From the NCBI GenBank assembly GCA_963823925.1, contig CAWGNI010000001.1:19608-83607 (forward strand): DNA of 64,000 bases. The letters are read 5' to 3'. The notes under the pieces are model-generated. The model was given only the letters and a program-made list of their open reading frames with translations, had not been told where the DNA came from and made no database searches. The DNA comes from an uncultured Chloroflexia bacterium (GTDB taxonomy: Bacteria > Chloroflexota > Limnocylindria > Limnocylindrales > CSP1-4). Made by a program: the position numbers and the translations under genes. This document shows, in pieces, positions 16,357 to 45,595 of the stretch. Each line of letters opens with the position of its first letter. The stretch's first letter is position 1.

Positions 16357-19300
16357 CTACGAGCCGAAATACGTGAACACGCGGGTCATCAGCTCGGTCT
16401 TCTGGTCGGCCGATCCGTAGGCCTCGAACGGGAAGGCGAGGAAGACGACCTTGTACGGTCCGTCGCTGACGGACAGGGCATCCGGCTCGGTCGCGTCATC
16501 GGTGAAGGCCGCCTGCGCGGGAGCGATCGGGGTTATCTGGTCGGAGTACTCCGCTCCGAACAGGATGGAGAAGTCGAGCGGGATCGTTCCGAGCCCGTCC
16601 GTGACGGGATTGCCCGCGACGCCGGTCACGTTGTCGGTCGCGACGTCGTTCTGGGCCTCGGAGCCGTCCCAATCGACATGCAGGTAGTCCTGGACGAAAG
16701 CAGTCGTCCCGGCCGTCTGGTCAAGGATGTCCTGACCGGACAGGAATAGCCGCCCGCCACCATCGAGGAAGGAGGCGAGATCGGCTTCGTAGAGGCCGAT
16801 CGGATCCGGGTATGAATTGCCGGTGAACCAGACGATGTTCGTGTGCGCCTTCATGTACCCGATCGGCAGGACCGGATCGGTCGCGAGGTCCCACACATCG
16901 AATGCCTGTCCAGCCGCGGTCAGCGCGTCCGTGTAGTAGGACAGGACATCCGGGATGTCCCCATCGTTGTCGACGACCAGCGTCGCGACCGCGACCGCGA
17001 TCGTCGTCGCCGATGCCGTCGCGCTCACGGTCGGGTCTCCGGTCGACACGGCGGCCAATGAGGCGACGTCGGAGGCTGCGTTGGCCGTCCCGTCGGGGAC
17101 ATCGACCTTGAGGCAGACCTCCACTGTCGCGCCGCTGGCGACGCTGACCGAATCGAGTGGCGAACCGCAGCCGGCATCGAGCACGACCGCGGGGAACGTA
17201 CCCGACGTCGCGCTGACCGTATAGGTGTCGTCGTTGGCGCCGAGATTCGTGACGAAGAACGGATAGGTGACCGACGCTCCGACGGCGGCGCCATCGGTCT
17301 GCGCGGTCGGTTCGATAGTCACGGCGTACGACGGGGCGATCGGCGTGCTATGGGCACTGCCGGTGGTGCCGATGCCCGACGCGGAGGTCACGGTGAGGCC
17401 GTCATCGACGATCTCCCCGACCTTCCTGGGCAGGTTCGACGTGATCCGGACACTGAAGTGGACATCGATGCTTTCGCCGGCCGGGACAGTCAGCCCGGTC
17501 CACCTGACCGTGCCCTTGCTCAGGTGCCCGCCGTCGCCTGCCGTCCAGAAGCTGGTGCGCGCAGGGATCGGATCGCTGATCGTGACGCCGGTCGCGTCGG
17601 CGTTGCCGACGTTGTACAGGGTGATGGTGTAGTCGACGAGACTGCCAGGCCCGACCGGCTTCCCGGAATCGGACTTGCTCACGGCGAATGCCGGGACGTC
17701 GGCATCGTCATGCATGGTCCATGCGCCGCGACCATGGGTCCCGGCAGCAAGGTTCCGGTTGGCGGGATCAAGGTTGAGCTGCCAGATCTGGACGCTCGGG
17801 AAGCCACTTCCGAGGGCCTGCCAGCTGGCGCCGCCGTTGTAGGTCACGAACGGCCCGACGTCGGTCCCGGCGTAGATCGTGCTCGGATAACTCGCGTCCA
17901 GCTGGAGCGAGTTCACGGGGGCATCTGGCAGGTTCGAACTGATGTCGGCCCACTTCGTGCCGCCATCGGTCGTCTTGAACACGTGACCGGGCCGGGATGG
18001 CGTCGCCAGGTTGAACCCGTTGAAGGCGACGTACGCGATCCGATCGTTCGAGCGGTCGACGGCGATATCCGCGACCGGCCGGTTCGGGAAGATCTTGGTG
18101 CCGACGCGCTTCCAGGTCGGGTCCGCGCTGCTGACGGCGTCGGGGCTGAACTGGACCCAGCCTTCGAGGGTGCCGACGTACACGCCGTCCCCACCGCCGG
18201 ACACGCCGATGGCACTGATGTCGCAGCCACGTGCCCCGTTCGGGGCTGTTCCCGTGCAGCCGGATGTGAGATCGCCACTGATCGTGTTCCAGTGGACGTC
18301 GGACGCGTTCGCTGCCTTGGCGTTGTCCGTTCGATAGAGTCGATAGGTTCCGAGGAAGAGTTGATCGGGATTCAGCTGGTTCATGACCTCGGGAACGTAG
18401 AACTCCGAGCGGTCGCTCAGGTTCAGCCCACCCGTGATGTACGCATTCGAGAAGAACTGCGCCCCGCCATCGGTGTTTCGATACGGGCTGATGCCGTAGT
18501 AGTTGCCGTATACGTACGAGTAGTCATTCGGGTCGACGAGGACCTGCCCGCCGTCCCCACTCTCGACGTCGAACCACGTGGAGCTCACGGTCGACTTGCG
18601 CATCGTGCCGTTGTCCTGGGTGCCTCCCCAGACCCGGTCCGGAAGCGTGGGGTTGTTGGCGATGCTGGTGAATTGCGTGATGGCCAGGCCGGTTCGGTGC
18701 GTCACCCCGGCCGTGTTCGGGTTCACGGTCCCGTTGAGGTTCTCCCAGTCATTTGCGTCCAGCGGATCGGTGGGGCCGTTGCGGCCGCCGCGGTCGCCGG
18801 ACGCCCAGACGCCACCGTCATTGCCGACCATGACCTGGTTCGTGTCGGCCGGGTTGATGGCGATCGCGTGATAGTCCGGATGGAGGTCGTACCCAAGGTC
18901 CTTCCAGGTCTGGCCGCCATCCGTCGAGCGGAACACGCCGCCCGATCCCGTTCCGTAGTTGAACAGGCCAAGGGCATAGACGATGTTCGAGTCGTTCGGG
19001 TCGACGCCGATCAGGTTGTCGTAGAAGCATTGGCCACCGCAATAGCCGGAGATGTTGTCGGGGTTGCCTGCCGGGCCGGCCGGCAGAAGATCCCATGGCC
19101 CGCCGTCGATGGACTTCCAGATCCGCGACGGCTTGTTGCTGCCACCTACGGTCCATTCGAAGCCGGCATAGAGGACGGCGCTCTCGCCGTCAGGGTGCGA
19201 GATGCCGAGCGCGAAGCGGGTGCCCCCGCCGGTCCCGAATGTCGCATCCGCCGGGATCCCGGCCATGAACTTGTGCCATGTCTGGCCATGATCGGTCGAC

Positions 19301-36212: not shown

Positions 36213-36797
36213 GTGAGCCGCCGCCATCACGGCCGACCGCATCAACGCGTCCGCGGGCCGGTCGAGGCGCCCCGACGACCGACTGGGGTGAGCCCCGAAA
36301 CCAGGGATCGAGTCGAGCCCGGCGAGGAGGCGGCAAGCGACGGGACGTCCACCGCCGCCTCGCGGTCGACCCCGGTCTCCGCGCCGCCGGATCCGGTTCC
36401 CGCGACAGCCCCCGCGTTCGTCCCGCACCGCGACGCCCCGCCACCTGCCACGAACGGCGGATCGGGAAACGGGGCATCGCATCAGGCCGGCTCGCCGCAC
36501 GGCATCCCGGATCGGCACGGCCAGTGCACGGCTCCGCAGCTCCGGCGGTTCATCAAGAGCCGCCCATATGTCCCGATGCACGAGCTTCGTCGCCAATTCG
36601 GGATCGACGGCGGGGATGATGATGTGACCGGGGTGCGTCTCGAGCCCGGCTGGGTCTATGTCGGTCTGCCGACGCGGGAGGGGGGCCTGCTCGGGGAGCT
36701 CCTCCAGGCCGGCGAGATCGGATACGAGCTGTCGCTCGACCCGTGTACCCCGATCGTCATCGGCGTCTACCCGATGCGCCCGATCCCGAGATCCTGA
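36213..36797 (+). CDS. Hypothetical protein (Pro/Ala/Ser-rich N-half, structured C-half)
   Basis: GTG start, 194 aa. The C-terminal QCTAPQLRRFIKSRPYVPMHELRRQFGIDGG...GEIGYELSLDPCTPIVIGVYPMRP looks protein-like. No family recognised and the start is uncertain. Confidence 0.5.
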   Translation: MSRRHHGRPHQRVRGPVEAPRRPTGVSPETRDRVEPGEEAASDGTSTAASRSTPVSAPPDPVPATAPAFVPHRDAPPPATNGGSGNGASHQAGSPHGIPDRHGQCTAPQLRRFIKSRPYVPMHELRRQFGIDGGDDDVTGVRLEPGWVYVGLPTREGGLLGELLQAGEIGYELSLDPCTPIVIGVYPMRPIPRS

Positions 36798-36801
36798 CGC
36801 C

Positions 36802-37575
36802 CTAGCGGGATCGACCGGCGGCCTGCGCCAGGAGCGTCTTTGCTTCGAACGGGGTGACGTCCGGGTAGGCGGACCGCAGACGCGTGAGCAACCCCGCGAT
36901 GTGTGGAGCGGCGAAGCTGTTGCCCGTCGCGATGATCTTCGAGCCACCGAGCCAGGCGACCGGGACGTCGACACCCCAGGCGCCGAACTCGACCGGAGGG
37001 TGCGGGTTGTAGAAGAAGGTCAGCGGATCCGGGATGTCGTGGGCCGCGACCGATACGACCGACGAGAAGACCGACGGGTAGCTCTCGTGCCCCTGCATGT
37101 TGCTCGCCGAGCACACGAGCAGGCAGTCGGCGAAGTACGCCTGGTCGACCAGGTCGTGGAACGTCGGGAACAGCTGTTCGCTGCGTGACGACAGGCTCAG
37201 GTTGGCCACCGGGATCCGATGTTCGACGACCCAGTCGATGGCGTGGGCGAACGCCAGGCCCTTGCCCTTGTTATCCGGCCCCAACACCCGGATCGAGATG
37301 AGCTCGGCCTCGGGGGCGAGGGAATGGATGATCCCGGCGCAGGCCGTCCCATGGCCCACGACGTCTCCGCCGTCTCCATCGTCGACGACTTCGCCGTCAC
37401 CGTCCTGGGTGAGTTCTACCCGCAGGCTTCTGACCAGCCGGCCGCCGACCGCCGGGTTATCGCCGTCGACGCCAGAATCGATGATGGCGACGGTCACGCC
37501 CTGCCCACGAGCCGTCCAGCCAGTCGATCGGAGCGGCGTCGCTCGGGAATGGCCCCGTCCTTGCCAGCTCGCCAC
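36802..37575 (-). CDS. Small S8 (subtilisin-family) serine peptidase lacking signal peptide and propeptide
   Basis: 257 aa. Triad in VAIIDSGVD (D), VVGHGTACAG (H) and ATGNSFAAPHIAG (S), with oxyanion CSASN. Confidence 0.85.
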   Translation of the reverse strand: MASWQGRGHSRATPLRSTGWTARGQGVTVAIIDSGVDGDNPAVGGRLVRSLRVELTQDGDGEVVDDGDGGDVVGHGTACAGIIHSLAPEAELISIRVLGPDNKGKGLAFAHAIDWVVEHRIPVANLSLSSRSEQLFPTFHDLVDQAYFADCLLVCSASNMQGHESYPSVFSSVVSVAAHDIPDPLTFFYNPHPPVEFGAWGVDVPVAWLGGSKIIATGNSFAAPHIAGLLTRLRSAYPDVTPFEAKTLLAQAAGRSR

Positions 37576-37623
37576 GCTTCGGCTCCCGGAAGGGCTCGCT
37601 CCATGCCGGATACAGCTCGGATG

Positions 37624-38421
37624 TCACCGGCGGAGTCTGCCCAGCCTGCCGCTCGCGTCACGTCCGTCCGCCGCACGATGACGGCCGATGACCGAGAGGA
37701 GTTCGATCGCGAGTTCGCGATCTGCGGCAGAGGCGTGGCGCATCGAGGCGATGGCGTCCACGAACGCCCAGAACCGATCGTCGCCCGACCGGCGGCGGGT
37801 CGCGGCCGAGACGATCTCGGCGACCGCGGGATCCGTGTCGGCGCCTCCGTCGATCCGCAGCACGTCGGCCAGCAGCGCCCGGAGTTCGCGGGCGCGCGCC
37901 GACACCTTGATCGCGGTCGCCGCCTGTCGCGCGAAGTGGGCAGCGGTCTCGATGTCCTGGATGGAGAATGGACCCTCGAGCTTGTCGATGACCTCGAGGA
38001 CGCCGATGGTTCGGGCGCCGTCCTCGAGCGGCACGGCGAGGAGTGAGCGGGGCACGTAGCCGGTCTTGTCGGCGACGTTCCGGCCGAATCTGGGGTCCTG
38101 GGCAGGGTCGGTGATCGCGATGCTCTCGCCGGTCGTGAACACGTACCCGACGATCCCCTGGGCCGGACCGATGGTCATGCCCACCACCGGCTGTCCCTGG
38201 GCGCCGGCTGCGACCACGAACCGCAGGTTTCCCGAAGCCTCGTCGAGCAACGCGATCGAGGCGGCTTCGGCGGCGAAGATGCCGACCGTGGCATCCACGA
38301 TCGTCCGCAGCAGGACCATCTCGGGGTCCGTATCAAGATGGACCGCGGTATCACCCCGGAGCGCGATCTCGCGGAGCAGGGCCTGCGCGTCGGGCGACAG
38401 GTCCTTCGAGCGCTTCACCAT
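37624..38421 (-). CDS. GAF-domain protein
   Basis: 265 aa. GAF core (ASIALLDEASGNLRFVVAAG...GIVGYVFTTGESIAI...SLLAVPLEDGARTIGVLEV) plus a helical C-terminal region. The start overlaps the CRP stop by 7 nt. Confidence 0.8.
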   Translation of the reverse strand: MVKRSKDLSPDAQALLREIALRGDTAVHLDTDPEMVLLRTIVDATVGIFAAEAASIALLDEASGNLRFVVAAGAQGQPVVGMTIGPAQGIVGYVFTTGESIAITDPAQDPRFGRNVADKTGYVPRSLLAVPLEDGARTIGVLEVIDKLEGPFSIQDIETAAHFARQAATAIKVSARARELRALLADVLRIDGGADTDPAVAEIVSAATRRRSGDDRFWAFVDAIASMRHASAADRELAIELLSVIGRHRAADGRDASGRLGRLRR

Positions 38422-39140
38422 TGCGCGCGCTGTGCCATGCGGCGAACGTCGAGGACCACCAGGTCATGCGGCTCGACCCGCAGGAGGTCCTCGGCCACGA
38501 GTTCGGCCACGACCCGGTTGACGCTCTGCCGGGTGCCGCCGATCATCGCCGCGAGCTCGGATTGCGTATACGCCCGGCCGAGCCTGACGTCCTGCATCTC
38601 GCCAGGGGCGACCTCCTCGGCCATCCGTGCCAGACGGCTCGCGAGCCGCCCGCCGAGGTCGAGGAAGTGGAGCTCGGACACGTGGGTCGTCAGGCGTCGC
38701 AGGTCAAGCGTCAGCGTTCGCAGGATCGCCGTCCGGAAGGCCTCGTTGTCCGCCATCAGCGGCCCGAACGCCTCCTGGGTCAGGGTGTAGGTGACCGTCG
38801 GCTCGACCGCCACCGCCGTCGCCGAGCGGGGTGCGTCGTCGAGCAGCACCAGTTCGCCGAAGACATCGCCCGGTGCGAGCGTCACCAGGATCGCCTCCGC
38901 GCCGTCCTGCGACTCGATCGAGATCTTGGCCCTGCCCGACGCGATGACGTGCATGGCGTCACCTGGATCGCCTTCGTGGAAGATCGTCTCTCCGGCCCTG
39001 AACCGCCGCTGGCGAAGCATCGGAGCGATCAACTCCAGGTCCTCAGGCGCGACGCCGCGGAACAGGCGCGAGCGACCGATCGCATCGATGACCGCGCGAT
39101 CCTGGGCGGGCGTCGTCCGCGCCGCTGGTTGGTCGGTCAT
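38415..39140 (-). CDS. CRP/FNR-family transcription regulator (cNMP-binding domain + HTH)
   Basis: ATG 39140 inside ORF 38415..39245, GAGGAGGA upstream. RLFRGVAPEDL, GDVFGELVLLDDAPRSATAVA, and HTH YTQSELAAMIGGTRQSVNRVV. Confidence 0.9.
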   Translation of the reverse strand: MTDQPAARTTPAQDRAVIDAIGRSRLFRGVAPEDLELIAPMLRQRRFRAGETIFHEGDPGDAMHVIASGRAKISIESQDGAEAILVTLAPGDVFGELVLLDDAPRSATAVAVEPTVTYTLTQEAFGPLMADNEAFRTAILRTLTLDLRRLTTHVSELHFLDLGGRLASRLARMAEEVAPGEMQDVRLGRAYTQSELAAMIGGTRQSVNRVVAELVAEDLLRVEPHDLVVLDVRRMAQRAQW

Positions 39141-39229
39141 GGCGTGCGCGTCCTCCTCGTTCAGCGTCGGTCGCGAATCGGCCCGACCCGAGTGTAGGAC
39201 GCGATCCCCGGCTGGTCGAGGTTCTGTCG

Positions 39230-40885
39230 TCATGGCCGGCTCCATGATCCGCGATATCGATCGAGCAACTGGGTGGTGAGACCCGGGCCTGCGTCGACCA
39301 GGCCGAGGAACCCGTCCCGGTCGAGGGCGAAGAGCCGGCCACCAGATGCGGCCGTCACGGTCGCCGTCCGGGGAACCGAGGTCAGCAGGCCGATCTCGCC
39401 GAAGACATCCCCGGGACCGAGCGTCCGAAGCTCGGTCCGTTCGCCGCTGTCAGACCGCTGCGAGACGGTGTAGGTGCCGGTGTCGATGAAGTAGAAGCGA
39501 TCGGCTGGCTCTCCCTGCCCGACGATGACCTCCCCGGGCGCGACGTCGACCGGGACCACCCGCCGGGCGGCCGCCTCGAGGCGGGCTGGGAGGACGCCGC
39601 CGAACACGCTCGAGCGGATGATCTCCAGCCGCCTGGGTTCGAGTGCCGACGGGACCAGCGCGCCACTCGACCGAAGCAGGCCGATCGAAAGGATGCCCAC
39701 CACGCCAGCGCCGACCGCGATGGTGACGGTGGCGACCCCCGGCCCATAGGCATCGGCCAGCAGTGGGGCCGCGAACGCGCCGGCGATCGCAGCCATCGAA
39801 CTCGGGATCTGGAGGAAGCCCATCGCCCGACCGCGTTCGTCGTCCGGCACCACCCGCTGCAGGATCGTCGCATTGATCACGTCGAGCAGGAGCAGGGCTC
39901 CGACGGCGATGCCGATCGCCAACAGGGCCGGCCCGAGGTCGTTCGTGAAGCCGAGGACGATCAGACCCAGGCCACCGACCAGGCTGCCGACGATGATCCC
40001 GACATCCAGTCGTCGAAGGACGACCCAGCCGGCAGCGATCCCTGCCACGATCCCGCCGATCCCGGTCGCGGCGTTGAGGTAGCCGGTGGCCGCTTCGCCC
40101 GCCCCGAGCGAGTCGACCGCGATGACGACCGTCAGGACGCTGAGTCCGCCGCCCGCGAAGCTCGTCGCGATATCGAGCGCGATGACCCCGGGGATCCGGG
40201 CGATGATCGCCATCCAGCCGGTCCCATCGGCTGCAGCGGCCGCGTCGGCAGCGTCGTCCTCGGCGGACCGCGCGGCGGCCTCCGACTCGCTCAGGAGCGT
40301 CCGACGGCTCGGTAGCGTCGCGATGATGATCGACACGAACGCGAACGTCGCGGCATTGAGGATGAACCCCAGCGCCAGGCCACCGACGGCGATCAGCACC
40401 CCCGCGATCGCCGGTCCGATGAAGTAGGCGAGGTTGTCAAGGGTGGCCCAGACGCTGTTGGCCGGCCCGAGATCGCGCTCGTCATCGACCAGCGACGGCA
40501 GGTACGAACCGATGGCCGGCCCGAAGAAGGTCGACACGCAGGCTGCGAGGATCGCCACCGCGACGATCCAGAGCGTTGCTGCTCCGGTCAGGACGAGGAT
40601 CGCCAGGACGACCTGGAGGAGGCCCCGGATGATGTCGGTCGTCAGCAGGATGAGACGGCGGTCGAACCGGTCGGCCACGATCCCGGCCGGGATCGACAGC
40701 AGCAGCGACGGCGCGATCCGGGCGGCGCCCACCAGCCCGAGCGCCAGCGCATCGTGCGACTCCTGGTACACGACGATCAACATCGCGACCATGTACAGCC
40801 AATCGCCGATCGACGAGATGAACTCGCCGGCCATCAGGCGGGCGAGTCGAGAGTTGGCGAAGACGCGACGGTAGGCAGTCAGCAC
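39230..40885 (-). CDS. MFS transporter fused to a C-terminal cyclic-nucleotide-binding domain
   Basis: GTG start, 551 aa. About 12 TM segments (GIVADRFDRR MFS loop motif), then GQGEPADRFYFIDTG...GDVFGEIGLLTSVPRTATVTA. Confidence 0.85.
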   Translation of the reverse strand: MLTAYRRVFANSRLARLMAGEFISSIGDWLYMVAMLIVVYQESHDALALGLVGAARIAPSLLLSIPAGIVADRFDRRLILLTTDIIRGLLQVVLAILVLTGAATLWIVAVAILAACVSTFFGPAIGSYLPSLVDDERDLGPANSVWATLDNLAYFIGPAIAGVLIAVGGLALGFILNAATFAFVSIIIATLPSRRTLLSESEAAARSAEDDAADAAAAADGTGWMAIIARIPGVIALDIATSFAGGGLSVLTVVIAVDSLGAGEAATGYLNAATGIGGIVAGIAAGWVVLRRLDVGIIVGSLVGGLGLIVLGFTNDLGPALLAIGIAVGALLLLDVINATILQRVVPDDERGRAMGFLQIPSSMAAIAGAFAAPLLADAYGPGVATVTIAVGAGVVGILSIGLLRSSGALVPSALEPRRLEIIRSSVFGGVLPARLEAAARRVVPVDVAPGEVIVGQGEPADRFYFIDTGTYTVSQRSDSGERTELRTLGPGDVFGEIGLLTSVPRTATVTAASGGRLFALDRDGFLGLVDAGPGLTTQLLDRYRGSWSRP

Positions 40886-40957
40886 GGCGGCGCCGAACGC
40901 GACGAAACGCCCCGGGGAACGGGTCCCCGAGGCGTGATCGTCAGGCGGATCAGTCGA

Positions 40958-41482
40958 CTAATGCCGGGTCTGCTCGTCCGGGCCGCCCTCGCCGCCGGTG
41001 GCGTAGTCACGGTTTCGGAGATACCCCTCTTCGGTCGGGACGGCCGGCCGAGCCGTGAACTTCTGGCCCTCGGTGTCGTCTTCGGTCGGGACGGCCGGCC
41101 GAGCCGTGAACTTCTGGCCCTCGGTGTCGTCTTCGGTCGGGACGGCCGGCCGAGCCGTGAACTTCTGGCCCTCGGTGTCGTCTTCGGTCGGGACGGCCGG
41201 CCGAGCCGTGAACTTCTGGCCCTCGGTGTCGTCTTCGGTCGGGACGGCCGGCCGAGCCGTGAACTTCTGGCCCTCGGTGTCGTCTTCGGTCGGGACGGCC
41301 GGCCGAGCCGTGAACTTCTGGCCCTCGGTGTCGTCTTCGGTCGGGACGGCCGGCCGAGCCGTGAACTTCTGGCCCTCGGTGTCGTCTTCGGTCGGGACGG
41401 CCGGCCGAGCCGTGAACTTCTGGCCCTCGGTGTCGTCTTCGATCGGGGCGGCTGATTCGCCCGGACGGTGCTTCTGGTCCAT
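40958..41482 (-). CDS. Acidic tandem-repeat protein, 174 aa: 8 identical 17-aa units (DDTEGQKFTARPAVPTE)
   Basis: Internal ATG of ORF 40958..41503, with AAGGAG 5 nt upstream. The chosen frame has G/C at 15 of 17 third positions per unit, against 11/17 and 8/17 for the other two minus frames. No signal peptide or TM segment. Confidence 0.7.
   Translation of the reverse strand: MDQKHRPGESAAPIEDDTEGQKFTARPAVPTEDDTEGQKFTARPAVPTEDDTEGQKFTARPAVPTEDDTEGQKFTARPAVPTEDDTEGQKFTARPAVPTEDDTEGQKFTARPAVPTEDDTEGQKFTARPAVPTEDDTEGQKFTARPAVPTEEGYLRNRDYATGGEGGPDEQTRH
41028..41441. repeat. Perfect tandem repeat, 51-bp unit x 8 (plus 6 bp of a ninth, diverged copy)
   Basis: Unit TCTTCGGTCGGGACGGCCGGCCGAGCCGTGAACTTCTGGCCCTCGGTGTCG starts at 41028, 41079, 41130, 41181, 41232, 41283, 41334 and 41385 with no mismatch. 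Confidence 0.97.
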
Positions 41483-41667
41483 CGTGTCTCCTTCTGGTGC
41501 CATATCGCCCGTCGCCTTTTCGGGCCGTTACCGAGAGAGTAAAGGGTCGAATACGCACCGCGGAAGCCCAGGTCGGACTTCAACGCTGTCGGATGGCCGA
41601 CATCCGGCACGGCGAGCACCGCCGCAGTCCGCCGGTCCGAGGACGATCCTGGGCTCGAGTGACAAGC

Positions 41668-42537
41668 TCAATAGACCTCAGGGATGAAGGTCTGGTCCGA
41701 CATCGGCGGCCGGATGTACCCCTGATCGTCCTGACGGGGCGGCAGGACGATGGGTTCGGGGGTGAGGTCCTGGTAGGGGATCAGGCCGAGGAGATGTCTG
41801 ATGAGGTTCAGCCTCGCCCGCTTCTTGTTGTCCGCGTTGACCACGTACCAGGGCGCCTGCTTGATATCGGTGTAGGAGAACATCTCATCCTTGGCTCGCG
41901 AGTACTCGACCCAGCGCGAGCGGGATTCGAGATCCATCGGGCTGAGCTTCCAGCGTTTGGTCGGGTCCTCAAGTCGGCTCTGGAAGCGGCGTTCCTGCTC
42001 GGCGTCGCTGACCGAGAACCAGTACTTGACGACGATGATCCCCGAGTGCACGAGCATCCGCTCGAAAGCAGGGCAATCGCGCAGGAAGTCCTGGTATTCC
42101 TGCTCGGTGCAGAAGCCCATGACCCGTTCGACCCCGGCGCGGTTGTACCAGCTCCGGTCGAACAGGACCATCTCCCCGGCGGCCGGCAGGTGCGCGACGT
42201 AGCGCTGGAAATACCACTGGGACTTCTCACGCTCGGTCGGCGTTCCCAGGGCGACGACCCGGCAGAAACGCGGATTGAGGGTGAGGGCGAGCGTCTTGAT
42301 CGCGCCACCTTTCCCCGCGGCGTCGCGGCCCTCGAAGATCACGACGACGCGAAGACCCTTCTGCTTGATCCACTCGAGTTGCTTGACGAGTTCGACCTGG
42401 AGGATGGCGAGCTCGCGGAGGTACGCCTTGTTCGAGAGCGTCCGGACGGCGGAGCCGATCTCCTCGACCGGCGGATCTGCCCACACGTCGGCCAGTTCGG
42501 TGCTTTGCTGCTGCTGTTCGTCCCTCGTCCTGGCCAC
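41668..42537 (-). CDS. ppk2: Polyphosphate kinase 2 (single-domain PPK2)
   Basis: GTG 42537 inside ORF 41668..42909, GAGGTG upstream. Walker A FEGRDAAGKGG, also FDRSWYNR and DxxxKRWKLSPMD. Confidence 0.9.
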   Translation of the reverse strand: MARTRDEQQQQSTELADVWADPPVEEIGSAVRTLSNKAYLRELAILQVELVKQLEWIKQKGLRVVVIFEGRDAAGKGGAIKTLALTLNPRFCRVVALGTPTEREKSQWYFQRYVAHLPAAGEMVLFDRSWYNRAGVERVMGFCTEQEYQDFLRDCPAFERMLVHSGIIVVKYWFSVSDAEQERRFQSRLEDPTKRWKLSPMDLESRSRWVEYSRAKDEMFSYTDIKQAPWYVVNADNKKRARLNLIRHLLGLIPYQDLTPEPIVLPPRQDDQGYIRPPMSDQTFIPEVY

Positions 42538-42626
42538 GGCGCACCTCGGTTGCCGGTCGCGCCCCACACGCGGCGCCCGCAGAGATGATAGCCCTCGTAT
42601 CGCGCGATCCCGAGCGTCGGGCGACG

Positions 42627-43211
42627 CTAGCCGGTCGGGATCTCGATACCCTCGCGCCGAAGGAGATCTCGCTTCATCGCGATCCGCTCCTCTCGGCCGC
42701 CCCATGCGTCGCCACCGTACCCGCCGATCGTGCCATCGGCGGCGACGACTCGGTGACACGGGATGAGCAGGCCGACCGGATTGCGCCCGACGGCACCGCC
42801 GACGGCACGAGCCGCGCGTGGCGCGCCGATCCGCCGGGCGATCTCGCCGTAGCTCGCGGTGTGACCCCATCCGATACCCGCCACCGCAGCAAGGACTCGA
42901 CGATCCCATCCCGGCCGATCGGCAAGGTCGAACGACACATCATGCCGCGGCGGGCGCCCGTCGAGCAGCGATCCCAGGGCAGCCACGGCGGACACAAGGT
43001 GGCTCCGAGCCGGCTCGTCGCCATCCGGATCTGCGACATCCGGATCCACGACGTGGCGGGGATCGCCGCCGAGGCGACGACGCAGGCGTGCTTCGAGCGA
43101 CGGGCCGGTGGTGAACCACTCGACCGCAACGACCCCGTCCCGGGTCGCGGCCACATGGAACGGCCCCCAGGGCCCGGGGACCGTCGTCCAGATCGCGATC
43201 CGCTCCTCCAT
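42627..43211 (-). CDS. ogt: Methylated-DNA--protein-cysteine methyltransferase
   Basis: 194 aa with active site IPCHRVV and YGEIARRIGAPRAARAVGGA. Confidence 0.9.
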   Translation of the reverse strand: MEERIAIWTTVPGPWGPFHVAATRDGVVAVEWFTTGPSLEARLRRRLGGDPRHVVDPDVADPDGDEPARSHLVSAVAALGSLLDGRPPRHDVSFDLADRPGWDRRVLAAVAGIGWGHTASYGEIARRIGAPRAARAVGGAVGRNPVGLLIPCHRVVAADGTIGGYGGDAWGGREERIAMKRDLLRREGIEIPTG

Positions 43212-43242: not shown

Positions 43243-43259
43243 TATACTCCATGGGAGTA
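43243..43259. promoter_or_regulatory. Operator candidate, same 17-mer as 679-695; extended here to the perfect ATACTCC-ATG-GGAGTAT
   Basis: 7-bp arms with a 3-nt spacer. The right arm runs into the copA ATG (43259). TATACT at 43243-43248 could serve as the -10 for a near-leaderless transcript. Confidence 0.55.
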
Positions 43260-45595
43260 TGAGCGACACGCCGTCCACCGCAGAGCTGGCCATCCCGATC
43301 GAGGGGATGACCTGCGCTTCCTGCGTCAACCGGATCGAGCGGTTCCTGAACAAGACGCCGGGCGTTGAGTCCGCTGCGGTCAACCTCGCCACCGAAGTGG
43401 CGACGATCCGCTTCCGGACCGACGTGGCCGACGAGTCCGACCTGGTCGGTGCGATCGAGTCGGCTGGATATGAGGTCCGCGAACGAGCGGCTCCGGAGCC
43501 GGACGCCGCGCCCAGACCCTGGTCGAGGCGTTCTCCGAGGACGACCTCGCCCGCGAACGGGCAGCCCGCGACCTGCTCTTCAGGTCGTCGGTTTCGATCG
43601 CCGTCTCGATCGGGATCATGATCCTCATGTTCGGGCCGTGGAACTCGATCCCGATGACCGACCTCAACCGGCTCGTGCTCGTGCCGGCAACGTTCATCCA
43701 GTTCTGGGCGGGCGGTCGCTTCTATCGGTCCGCCTGGCGAGCCGCTCGCCACCGCACGACGGGCATGGACACCCTCGTCGCGATCGGGACCAGCGCCGCC
43801 TGGGCGTACAGCGTCGTCGTCACCGTATGGCCCGGTCTGGTCGAGTCGGCCGGGATCGCGCCGGTCACGTACTTCGACTCCTCGACGATCATCATCGGTC
43901 TCGTCCTGCTCGGCCGCTGGTTGGAGATGCGCGCCAAGGCGCGCACGACCGGGGCGATCCGTCGACTGATCGGGCTCAGTCCGACGACGCGCGAAGCTGG
44001 TGGTCGACGGTGTCGACCGGGATGTCGATCTCGAGATGATCCGGGTCGGTGACCTGCTCCGTGTCCGGCCGGGTGACACGGTCCCGGTCGACGGCATCCT
44101 CATCGAGGGTGGGTCATCGGTGGACCTGTCGATGCTCAGCGGGGAGCCGATCCCGGTCGATGTCGGACCCGGCGATGAGGTGATCGGTGCTGCGCGCAAT
44201 CTATCGGGCAGTTTCGTCATGCGCGCGACGCGCGTGGGCCGCGACACGGCCCTGGCCAGGATCGTCGACCTCGTCCAGCGTGCCCAGGGTTCCAAGGCGC
44301 CGATCCAGCGACTGGCCGACCGGATCGCTGCGGTCTTCGTGCCGATCGTCCTGATCACGTCCGTGGCGACCTTCGTCATCTGGTACCTGGCCGGACCGGA
44401 ACCCCAGCTGACCTATGCGTTGACCGCGTTCATCAGCGTGCTGGTGATCGCCTGCCCATGCGCGATGGGACTGGCGACCCCGACGGCGATCATGGTCGGC
44501 ACGGGCCGGGGCGCAGAGGCCGGGATCATCATCCGCGGCGGCGACGCACTCGAAACGGCCCATCGGGTCGGGGCCGTGGTCATGGACAAGACCGGCACCC
44601 TGACCATCGGCCACCCCTCGGTCACCACCATCGCCCCGGCAGCCGGCTACACGGCCGAGCAACTCCTCGACATCGCCGGTTCGCTCGAGCGCGGCAGCGA
44701 GCATCCGCTGGGCACGGCGATCCTCGAGCGGGCCCGCGTCGACGAACTCGGTTTCCTCGCGGTCACCGATTTCGCCGCGGTCGTCGGCGGGGTCGAGGGC
44801 ACCGTCGCCGGGCCTGACCGCCAGCATCAGGTGCTGGTCGGCGATCGGCGGATGCTGGCGAGTCGTGGCATCGACCTCGCGCCGATCGACGCGGAGGCGA
44901 CGGCCGCGGAGACCGCCGGCCAAACGGTCGCACTCGTCGCCATCGACGACGTCGCTGCCGGGGTCATCGCGCTCGGCGATCCGATCAAGCCGACGGCCGC
45001 TGCCGCGGTCCGGGCCCTGACCGAGATGGGCGCCGAAGTCTGGCTGGTCAGTGGCGATGGGCGGATCACCTGCGAGGCGGTCGCACGCCAGGTCGGGATC
45101 CCGGCCGATCGCGTCGAAGCGCAGGTCCTCCCCGCGGACAAGGTGGCGGCGATCGAACGACTCCAGGCTCGCGGCCTCGTCGTCGCCATGGTCGGTGACG
45201 GGATCAACGATGCACCTGCCATCGCCCAGGCGGACGTCGGGGTGGCGATCGGGACTGGCGCAGACGTCTCGATCGAGGCGTCCGATATCACCCTCATCGG
45301 CGGCGACCCGCAGGCGGTCGCGGTCGCCATCGAACTGTCGCGCGCGACGATGACCGTGATCCGTCAGAACCTGGGCTGGGCGTTCGGGTACAACATCGTG
45401 CTCATCCCGATCGCCATGGGTGTCCTCTATCCGGCCTTTGGGATCACCCTCGATCCGGCGCTCGCCGCCGGGGCCATGGCCCTGTCGTCCGTGTCCGTGG
45501 TCACGAACTCGCTGCGCCTGCGTGGCTTCCATGGCAAGTCGCCCGTACACTCGGCGGATGCACGAGCCGTCGCCCCAGGGAGCAGTCCCGGTTGA
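43259..45595 (+). pseudogene. copA: Copper-translocating P1B-type ATPase, two frame disruptions (43474-43513 and about 43990)
   Basis: HMA domain GMTCASCV is in ORF 43259... The frame of ORF 43618..44052 carries QTLVEAFSEDDLARE...FIQFWAGGRFY...GMDTLVAIGTSAAW. ORF 44000..45595 carries KLVVDGVDRDV...CPC (VIACPCAMGL), DKTGTLT and GDGINDAP. Confidence 0.9.

Follow-up and report, generated by a model that had tools for sequence, protein, structure and literature searches.

Why a protein built of eight identical 17-residue units should be encoded beside a subtilisin-type peptidase and three sensory modules is the question raised by a gene cluster of an uncultured Chloroflexia bacterium. The cluster occupies positions 36802 to 42537 of a 64,000-nucleotide stretch of contig CAWGNI010000001.1 (assembly GCA_963823925.1), referred to here as the window. 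A previous reading made from the letters alone (the sequence-only reading) described six co-directional minus-strand genes, encoding the polyphosphate kinase PPK2, the repeat protein, a major facilitator superfamily (MFS) transporter fused to a cyclic nucleoside monophosphate (cNMP)-binding domain (MFS::cNMP), a CRP-family regulator, a GAF protein, and an S8 peptidase. All six open reading frames (ORFs) and their domains were recovered in the ORF list and by Pfam, and the intergenic distances of 185, 72, 89, −7, and 48 nt were reproduced from the ORF coordinates. The three cNMP or GAF sensory modules, located in the MFS C-terminus, the CRP regulator, and the GAF protein, were likewise found by Pfam.

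Five of these genes, encoding the repeat protein, MFS::cNMP, CRP, GAF, and S8, form a conserved module, whereas PPK2 does not belong to it. The initial observation is therefore confirmed, and the proposal built on it, that the S8 peptidase cuts the repeat protein, is partly supported, with the functional linkage and the role of the repeat protein as a substrate strengthened by neighborhood, regulon, and motif evidence. As part of the full mechanism proposed below, we give slightly less than an even chance to the view that the window holds one example of a module that is widespread, undescribed, and under cyclic-nucleotide control. The features concerned are as follows.

36802–37627, minus strand (catalytic ORF 36802–37575): S8 peptidase without signal peptide (Pfam Peptidase_S8, 94 bits), with a frameshift near 37510–37514
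37624–38421, minus strand: stand-alone GAF protein (Pfam GAF, 70 bits)
38415–39140, minus strand (longer ORF to 39245): CRP-family transcription factor (Pfam cNMP_binding and HTH_Crp_2)
39230–40885, minus strand: MFS transporter with C-terminal cNMP-binding domain (Pfam MFS_1, MFS_3, and cNMP_binding)
40907–40935, minus strand: terminator- or attenuator-like hairpin followed by UUUCGU, in the gap that separates the repeat gene from the MFS gene
40958–41482, minus strand (longer ORF to 41503): motif-repeat protein gene, 174 residues (ORF, tandem-repeat, codon-position GC, and Shine–Dalgarno evidence)
41587–41602, strand not applicable: palindromic CRP/FNR-type operator TGTCGGCCATCCGACA, 5-6-5 (conservation and position statistics)
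41668–42537, minus strand: PPK2 (Pfam, 351 bits)

Conservation of the gene cluster

A genome scan with the S8 protein identified the related loci L001–L005, and a metagenome scan with an S8 profile contributed 80 more at 48–77% identity. Approximately 90 related loci, from soil Chloroflexota and Actinomycetota, were compared in all. Presence was counted over 87 S8 loci, with the loci that carried enough flanking DNA as denominators. Relatives of the S8 protein in the broad sense, generic subtilases included, comprise more than 6,800 proteins at E ≤ 1e-20.

The genome scan placed the closest relatives of the region among metagenome-assembled genomes (MAGs) of Thermomicrobiales/Chloroflexia. In the four Chloroflexia MAG loci (L001–L004, 65–87% identity), the order repeat protein–MFS–CRP–GAF–S8 is the same. 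The fifth locus, from an Ilumatobacteraceae member (Actinomycetota) whose S8 is 51% identical, contains MFS–GAF–S8 with a divergent CRP gene nearby and a one-motif ORF before the MFS gene. Across the assessable loci, S8 has a GAF gene no more than 400 nt upstream in 60 of 62, a CRP gene within 2.5 kb in 29 of 35, and an MFS::cNMP gene within 6 kb, on either strand, in 14 of 16. Gene order is shuffled between loci while the association is maintained. The sequence-only reading had made its case depend on whether the S8–GAF–CRP–MFS(cNMP) quartet recurs in other genomes; the quartet is kept across two phyla. Comparative genomics shows a conserved module and a CRP-type regulon that connect these four genes with the motif proteins described below. 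Within the module, CRP, GAF, and S8 form a translationally coupled core, because the orthologous S8 start, GTG at 37627, overlaps the GAF stop as GTGA; the CRP stop and the GAF start likewise share 7 nt.

In approximately 20 loci, a gene for a class III nucleotide cyclase joined to an AAA/STAND region was found within 8 kb. It formed the only informative group in a single-linkage clustering of neighborhood ORFs, which otherwise fused into one component through long spurious high-GC ORFs. A library-wide search with the GAF protein was dominated by giant multi-GAF sensors and was uninformative on family size.

The repeat protein and its motif family

Tandem Repeats Finder (TRF) detected a 51-nt repeat of 8.3 copies at 41028–41452 (99% identical, score 836), and translation yields exactly eight identical 17-residue units of EDDTEGQKFTARPAVPT, in agreement with what had been noticed in the sequence-only reading. 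The 174-residue protein is acidic (pI 4.4) and strongly hydrophilic, and is composed of MDQKHRPGESAAPI, the eight units, and a 24-residue tail. No signal peptide is present, the N-terminus MDQKHRPGES being hydrophilic, and the unit contains no Cys, no Ser, and no dibasic site. The DNA around the cluster has a GC content of approximately 68%, and the ORF list shows five of the six frames open across the repeat. The frame chosen in the sequence-only reading is nevertheless the coding frame, because its GC by codon position (0.71/0.52/0.86 at positions 1/2/3) equals that of the flanking genes, an AAGGAG Shine–Dalgarno box lies 7 nt 5' of the ATG at 41482, the N-terminus M(D/N)(Q/T)K(H/N)RPGE is kept in orthologs, and changes within the motif are synonymous only.

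Orthologs of the repeat protein with 6–10 units (copy numbers 6, 8, 9, and 10) occur in L001–L004 and in L090, a near-identical strain. Units are identical within each of these genomes and differ between genomes, and every unit of the window carries the same two synonymous changes relative to L090. Between genomes, the codons of the motif differ by synonymous changes only, whereas the spacer shows replacements and indels. This pattern indicates that the motif is under purifying selection and that the arrays are homogenized by concerted evolution.

More distant homologs are small proteins carrying several DDTEGQ, DDVEGQ, or DDTEGH motifs on unrelated spacers. The conserved entity is a motif of approximately 5–10 residues, not the 17-residue unit; over the family it reads acidic-acidic-D-(V/T)-E-G-(H/Q), set in small hydrophilic proteins. 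None of the repeat or motif proteins matched a Pfam, NCBIfam, or PADLOC family. In a strict scan, 14 of 30 assessable loci had an ORF with at least three motifs no farther than 4 kb from S8, and the rest of that DNA was almost free of such ORFs. Inspection of the other 16 revealed 12 more loci with ORFs carrying one or two motifs or variants such as DEAVAH, DDVAAH, TQVKAH, and DTSGH, raising the count to approximately 26 of 30. The question posed in the sequence-only reading, whether a repeat ORF always accompanies the quartet, is thus answered positively for most loci and negatively for three or four.

The position of the motif ORF relative to the cluster is variable, as is its orientation. 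It precedes the MFS gene in the window and in L001–L005, lies between CRP and GAF in many loci, and is convergent after S8 in L007, L010, L017, L028, L038, and others; three motif ORFs surround a single cluster in L091. Reverse searches from motif proteins led back to the module, P0008 adjoining S8–GAF–MFS and P0163 and P0192 both lying directly upstream of CRP–GAF–S8. As a separate observation, two complete S8–GAF–MFS(cNMP) triads flank a single DVEGQ-array gene on the 7.7-kb contig of L007 (340–7550).

At least three architectures were distinguished among the motif proteins. The first comprises pure arrays, as in the window; the second, arrays that begin with a conserved helix (M..KQTQALKRLIKKLSALR.TL...ER.LLD) at the N-terminus and end in a (V/I)xxD...EY tail; and the third, one to four motifs ahead of a conserved, basic peptide of approximately 45 residues at the C-terminus, NIGVMNPILARELSRARERDVQRE... 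Spacers vary from K/A/P-rich to (AHKPTS)n or (GASSARSL)n and show no relationship between lineages. Motif counts range from 1 to approximately 10 in strict scans and reach 17 in looser scans that count AHKPTS-type sub-repeats, and many motif proteins stop 4–7 residues past a motif.

A shared operator and a CRP-type regulon

Approximately 105 nt upstream of the repeat gene, with its center 112 nt from the ATG, lies TGTCGGCCATCCGACA (41587–41602), a perfect 5-6-5 palindrome of the CRP/FNR type. No other perfect TGTC-N8-GACA occurs in the 64 kb. It is found at the same position in L090, L002, L003, L004, and L008 while the flanking DNA diverges, and the family consensus is TGTC(G/A)-N6-(C/T)GACA. 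Over all loci, 52 of 70 sites (74%) have a [DE][TVA]EG[HQ] ORF within 450 nt, compared with 6.1% of 1,860 random positions; most of the other sites precede variant-motif ORFs or the CRP gene. The distance from site center to predicted start codon has a median of 108 nt (interquartile range 91–117). Even the orphan motif genes of L006 and L009 have two to four sites.

The cluster's regulator displays the features of the CRP/FNR family, namely a cNMP-binding domain with the phosphate-binding cassette FGELVLLDDAPRSA, an HTH_Crp_2 domain, and the conserved TGTCG-N6-CGACA upstream of motif genes. Because the operator is shared and is positioned tightly upstream of motif ORFs, these data support control of the motif genes by a CRP-family protein, most simply the cluster's own. 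The CRP part of the operon control envisaged in the sequence-only reading is thereby supported through the operator, while the involvement of cNMP stays conjectural.

Additional operator copies were observed between the MFS and CRP genes or directly upstream of CRP in L003 (8175), L004 (8112), L008 (12362), and L060 (7792), and no such copy is present in the window. These sites suggest that CRP–GAF–S8 is autoregulated in some lineages.

Downstream of the repeat gene, the 86-nt hairpin region folds at −45.7 kcal/mol (z = −3.75, with 0 of 200 shuffles as stable) and is GC-rich. A hairpin is found at the same place in L090, L002, and L001 with altered stem and loop, and L003 and L004 have different hairpins there. 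A simple promoter and terminator scan called nothing relevant, the hairpin at 40907–40935 included. This arrangement suggests strong expression of the repeat gene as a unit, from which some transcription may read through into the MFS gene.

The S8 protease

Catalytic residues D33, H75, and S220 and the oxyanion N159 are intact in the window and invariant in ortholog alignments. S8 orthologs are 273–300 residues long and share a nearly invariant N-terminal extension of approximately 40 residues, P-A-W-x-x-P-F...W (PAWxEPF...W). In the window, this extension is encoded at 37627–37508, in a different frame from the catalytic domain; DNA alignment and a tblastn search with the L001 protein place a +1 frameshift, a one-base insertion relative to the 96%-identical L090, near 37514. 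The frameshift could be an assembly indel or could mark a decaying gene. The sequence-only reading had described a minimal subtilisin lacking both an export signal and a propeptide: no signal peptide and no I9 propeptide were found, whereas the apparent minimality reflects the frameshift, the extension being conserved.

The closest solved sequences are intracellular subtilisin proteases (ISPs; 7y6m at 3e-22, 7xr8, and 2x8j). Among NCBIfam models, the best is QhpE (NF049966) at 101 bits, below its cut-off of 165, and a mycosin model also scores below its cut-off. An AlphaFold2 model of the ortholog P0015 (mean predicted local distance difference test, pLDDT, 80) adopts a subtilisin fold, and a fold search of the PDB returned generic subtilisins only (TM-score ~0.6). 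Residues 194–215 of P0015, corresponding to approximately 36940–37005 in the window, form a family-specific loop with invariant YNPxPPVEFGAxG that is modeled at pLDDT below 50, although the remainder of the model is confident; it may be a substrate- or partner-binding element.

Ser is invariant at position 166 (BPN' numbering, hand alignment), and no acidic residue is conserved next to it. Many motif proteins end in ...R, and a kexin-like cleavage after Arg at unit ends was considered; it is not favored, the S8 protein lacking an acidic S1 residue.

GAF, CRP, and MFS::cNMP proteins

The GAF protein consists of a GAF domain (residues 37–171) and a C-terminal region of approximately 90 residues. 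The nearest solved relative of this domain is the GAF domain of a metal-dependent phosphohydrolase, 4mcw, followed mostly by cNMP-binding GAF domains (PDE2A GAF-B, PDE5, PDE10A, and CyaB2); the NKFDE-like stretch DK...F...DIE is only approximate. The GAF protein is likely the regulatory partner of S8. The CRP protein, whose start was set at M36 of the long ORF from the ortholog alignment, reaches 80 bits against the NCBIfam CRP model, below the cut-off. Canonical phosphate-binding cassettes are present both in CRP (see above) and in the cNMP domain of the MFS protein (FGEIGLLTSVPRTA).

The transporter appears DHA3/MFS_3-like and is probably related to EntS, Mef, and Tet(V). It scores 69 bits against Pfam MFS_3, above the cut-off, and 150 bits against TIGR00900, whose cut-off is 319. 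Of all the components it is placed the most loosely, and the named models it comes nearest to describe exporters of small molecules; weak matches to NCBIfam models of a ryptide-export MFS and a bacteriocin-transport cNMP protein were also recorded. PADLOC returned generic cNMP-domain matches and a weak subtilase match only, and nothing for the GAF or repeat proteins.

The motif as a possible protease site and the proposed mechanism

A logo weighted per locus was built from 153 distinct units of 42 loci and numbered as a cleavage site with H/Q at P1. On the N-terminal side, it shows acidic residues at P8–P6, D at P5 (89%), V/T at P4, E at P3, G at P2, and H (72%) or Q (28%) at P1; beyond H/Q, a hydrophobic residue at +2 and Arg at +5 are weakly preferred and nothing more is conserved. 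Read from P5 to P1 as acidic, β-branched hydrophobic, any, small, and large polar, the motif follows the usual subtilisin subsite pattern. ElxP, a cytoplasmic S8 leader peptidase, recognizes (D/E)(L/V)xxQ and cuts after Q, and LicP removes the hexapeptide NDVNPE (PMC10885120). D-(V/T)-E-G-(Q/H) aligns in register with the ElxP site (D/E −5)(L/V −4)xx(Q −1) and agrees with the leader-end motif (D/E −5)(L/V −4)xx(Q/R −1) of LanP/ElxP peptidases, a pattern match only. This agreement with the site of a known S8 leader peptidase makes it plausible, by analogy, that the S8 enzyme cleaves the repeat protein.

On this basis, we propose the following mechanism. A rise in cNMP would lead CRP to bind TGTCG-N6-CGACA and switch on the motif-protein gene, which would form a unit of its own with a leaky hairpin behind it. 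Sensing cNMP or another ligand, the GAF protein would control the subtilase, which would recognize D(P5)-V/T(P4)-E(P3)-G(P2)-H/Q(P1) and cut after H/Q at every motif in the manner of ElxP. In the window, the 174-residue protein would give approximately seven copies of KFTARPAVPTEDDTEGQ (average mass 1862.0 Da) and end pieces; in other lineages, lysine-rich spacers or the conserved basic C-terminal peptide would be released. Export of the products or their breakdown fragments by the cNMP-gated DHA3-type MFS would be the least certain step. The mechanism as a whole, with a cytoplasmic subtilase under cNMP control that would cleave behind every H/Q and an MFS that may carry the products out, is tentative, and we place it a little below even. 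Of the version in the sequence-only reading, the cutting of a repeat precursor by a subtilisin becomes plausible through synteny, regulon, and motif match, while export of the products by a cNMP-gated MFS stays conjectural. The eight identical exported peptides it envisaged would be only one of several possible outputs: the motif is conserved, the spacers are not, and single-motif members exist.

Several observations weigh against this mechanism. Cleavage, export, and ligand binding are inference only. The window's own S8 gene is frameshifted, no cyclase is encoded in the 64-kb window, and the module contains no modification enzyme. Peptides of 16–35 residues are large for a 12-transmembrane-segment MFS exporter, and the spacers, of low complexity and unrelated between lineages, fit linkers as well as bioactive cores. 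Among the 30 assessable loci, no motif ORF was found in L063, L067, and L088, and one more locus is doubtful. For the motif protein P0002 (L006), the nearest 10 kb contain no S8 gene. Nothing in the S1 pocket stands out as selecting His or Gln. Residue 158 is Ser in 11 of 11 Q-type loci and Asn in 25 of 26 H-type loci, but the covariation with P1 was rejected when the Ser-type proteins P0123 and P0101, for which Q was predicted, turned out to belong to loci (L095/L096) carrying DDTEGH/DDTEGN. Furthermore, ORFs in L013 (17168–17443, minus strand) and L046 (9745–10245, minus strand) carry DDVEGH motifs with a hydrophobic segment after them, which probably spans the membrane, and both lie more than 4 kb from the cluster. 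A TGTC-N8-GACA site at 17678 is located upstream of the L013 ORF. Such outlying genes suggest that the regulon and substrate set reach beyond the cluster.

Comparison with known systems

In its working, the module would come closest to the leader-peptidase step of ElxP and LicP multiplied along a precursor, with an overall logic like that of α-factor/Kex2 or PatE/PatA. It shares with the two lanthipeptide peptidases the S8 fold and, with ElxP, the recognition site in register and the cytoplasmic location. It differs in having neither LanB, LanC, or LanM nor a Cys/Ser/Thr-rich core, and neither the window cluster nor the related loci contain a lanthipeptide dehydratase or cyclase (LanB/C, LanM, LanKC, or LanL). 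Its site is repeated up to approximately 10 times per protein, while theirs occurs once at the leader–core junction; it also has a GAF partner and would be under cNMP control, and similarity to solved S8 proteases is generic (approximately 25–30%).

The yeast α-factor precursor resembles the repeat protein in its tandem repeats, in the alternation of a short conserved site with a unit, and in its processing by a subtilase-family enzyme, Kex2. In contrast to Kex2 precursors, the module has no dibasic KR/RR sites, signal peptide, secretory pathway, or kexin-type S1 pocket; the acidic motif itself is conserved, and the module is bacterial and cytoplasmic. Cyanobactin precursors are multi-core proteins with the recognition sequences G(L/V)E(A/P)S and AYDG, cut by S8 proteases (PMC10885120). 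PatE/PatA/PatG is alike in its multi-core precursor with repeated recognition sequences and its S8 cutting. However, the window S8 scores 18.5 bits against the PatA/PatG model TIGR03895, whose cut-off is 421, there is one protease per module instead of two, the repeat protein has neither G(L/V)E(A/P)S nor AYDG, no heterocyclase is present, and there is no evidence of a macrocyclase. The Kex2 and PatA/PatG comparisons offered in the sequence-only reading therefore fail as assignments to a family.

Bacillus ISPs are similar in lacking a signal peptide, in carrying a short N-terminal extension in place of I9, and as the best solved-sequence matches (E ~1e-22). Their extension carries a LIPY/F motif, whereas that of the module S8 is PAWxEPF...W; to our knowledge, ISPs have neither a dedicated GAF partner nor motif-array substrates. 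QhpE, the best named NCBIfam model, is a small cytoplasmic S8 leader peptidase acting on QhpC, a peptide similar to those that are made on the ribosome and modified after translation (RiPPs); besides the sub-threshold score, the module differs in that no locus contains QhpC or QhpD radical-SAM genes. The module is thus not a member of the cyanobactin, Kex2, lanthipeptide, or QhpE systems, and its extension motif differs from that of ISPs.

In the SAVED/Lon and CHAT effectors of CBASS and type III CRISPR, a second messenger acts through a sensor domain to trigger site-specific proteolysis. The possible logic of the module is the same, but the sensor (GAF, CRP-type cNMP) and the protease clan (S8) differ, and no defense genes are present. 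The mycobacterial proteins Rv3728 and Rv3239c combine an MFS efflux-type permease with a cytoplasmic cNMP-binding domain; as far as we know, both are uncharacterized and have not been linked to S8, GAF, or motif-protein genes.

A literature search found no published description of the system or of the motif proteins, in line with the remark in the sequence-only reading that no bacterial system of this composition was known. The module could represent a new class of second-messenger output, in which a cNMP/GAF-gated cytoplasmic subtilase is paired with a CRP regulon of cleavage-array proteins; we consider this possible, somewhat short of probable. Released products could then be signals, toxins, or dormancy factors, some perhaps exported via the cNMP-gated MFS. 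If the mechanism proposed above holds, a common and previously unrecognized route would lead in soil Chloroflexota and Actinomycetota from a cyclic-nucleotide signal to site-specific proteolysis of array proteins. Ribosomal peptides or pro-proteins of a new and large family would become recognizable by a 5-residue site and a 16-bp operator, and a cytoplasmic, sequence-specific S8 protease cutting after DVEGH/DTEGQ would find uses comparable to those of LicP or ElxP. Concrete, testable outputs would also be assigned to CRP, GAF, and cNMP-MFS proteins, which abound in these phyla but for the most part are annotated without a function. The module, which is frequent and conserved yet lacks annotation, yields precise predictions that can be tested at low cost and is approachable with four or five recombinant proteins.

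Alternative explanations

The strongest competitor, which we judge rather unlikely, is an intracellular proteolytic switch. GAF–S8 would act as a cNMP-activated cytoplasmic protease on motif proteins that are disordered pro-effectors or regulators inside the cell, for example by releasing the basic C-terminal helix from members with a single or few motifs, and MFS::cNMP would move a small molecule or cNMP in the signaling circuit. Many family members are indeed not arrays, having one to four motifs and the well-conserved basic peptide of approximately 45 residues (NIGVMNPILARELSRARERDVQRE...), and another group has the conserved N-terminal helix and (V/I)xxD...EY tail. Neither S8 nor its candidate substrates carry export signals, and cyclase–STAND genes are often adjacent. 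The transporter tells on both sides: its placement is the loosest, its nearest named models are small-molecule exporters, and the peptides are large for usual MFS substrates, yet it is still present in 14 of the 16 assessable loci, and the motif ORF lies directly upstream of it in the window and L005. PADLOC matched neither the GAF nor the motif proteins, and no target for released peptides can be named.

A second, improbable explanation is that the motif is a binding element that stays uncleaved, the arrays serving as multivalent pseudo-substrates, inhibitors, scaffolds for S8–GAF, or acidic His/Gln metal-binding proteins. Short motifs on low-complexity linkers in 1 to approximately 10 copies are typical of binding arrays, many of the proteins end 4–7 residues after a motif, and the motif with its x-hydrophobic-x-x-R continuation looks self-contained. 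D, E, and H are metal ligands, but replacement of His by Gln or Asn in whole lineages runs contrary to metal ligation. The position-by-position match to S8 subsites and to the ElxP/LicP sites would then be a coincidence, and the S8 catalytic residues are strictly conserved. The sequence-only reading had also considered a metal- or polyphosphate-associated protein next to PPK2. PPK2 and a neighboring Cu-ATPase gene are syntenic only in close relatives, and this link was rejected; specifically, PPK2 adjacent to the cluster had no match in L001–L005 or L007–L089 and was present only in L090.

More improbable still is a RiPP pathway whose modifying enzymes lie elsewhere, with cyanobactin-like macrocyclization by S8 or an unlinked tailoring enzyme acting on the repeat protein as a multi-core precursor. 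The repeated recognition sequence and multi-core layout, the rank of QhpE as the closest named model of this dedicated S8, and the weak matches to ryptide-export and bacteriocin-transport models are all compatible with such a pathway. However, no tailoring gene (YcaO, radical SAM, LanB/C/M, ATP-grasp, or other) recurs in the approximately 90 loci, the PatA/PatG score is far below its cut-off, the fold search gave plain subtilisins with nothing indicating a macrocyclase, and the window units contain neither Cys nor Ser.

That the genes are unrelated neighbors and the repeat a non-functional hypervariable minisatellite, open by chance in five of six frames and recently expanded as its near-identical DNA copies suggest, is scarcely credible and is contradicted, as is the corresponding alternative in the sequence-only reading, by the synteny across two phyla, the operator statistics, the coding GC3 pattern, the purifying selection with synonymous-only differences, and the existence of non-repetitive family members.

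Neighboring genes

The PPK2 ORF runs open for 124 codons 5' of its ortholog-supported start at 42537 (41668–42909, minus strand). This extension is probably not translated, because the Pfam match starts only at residue 158 of the long ORF. Beyond it, the Cu-ATPase gene named above, a heavy-metal P-type ATPase gene (HMA and E1-E2; 43259–45595, plus strand), is broken into three frames relative to the intact 778-residue ortholog of L090, with breaks near 43513 and 43990–44030. Together with the S8 shift, these amount to three indels in approximately 9 kb, and the S8 and ATPase frameshifts may be assembly indels rather than biology.

An ORF of approximately 170 residues (MQVPLTAYAEDC...) is adjacent to the cluster in L095 (8023–8532), L096 (5247–5792), and L027 (894–1388). 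It was rejected as a core part, being found in these three loci only. On the other side of the S8 gene in the window lies a further feature.

36525–36797, plus strand: small conserved ORF, core CTAPQLRRFIKSRPYVPMHELRRQF...PMRPIPRS, convergent with S8 and stopping 4 nt from the S8 stop

This ORF is 90–94% identical in L001–L004, L008, L064, and L090, and among close relatives it is better conserved than S8. Searches of Pfam and NCBIfam with E allowed to reach 10 gave no match, and its single-sequence AlphaFold2 model (pLDDT 48) is unreliable. Within the ORF, over the VGLPT codons at 36659–36674, there is a one-mismatch copy of the operator, TGTCGGTCTGCCGACG, and L090 has a perfect operator at the matching place (10866); the site may act as a second operator or may merely reflect the codons used there. 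The ORF is located upstream of CRP–GAF–S8 in L012, L013, L021, L022, and L025, and a motif ORF lies between it and CRP in L013, L021, and L022. The small ORF could itself belong to the module as an additional component.

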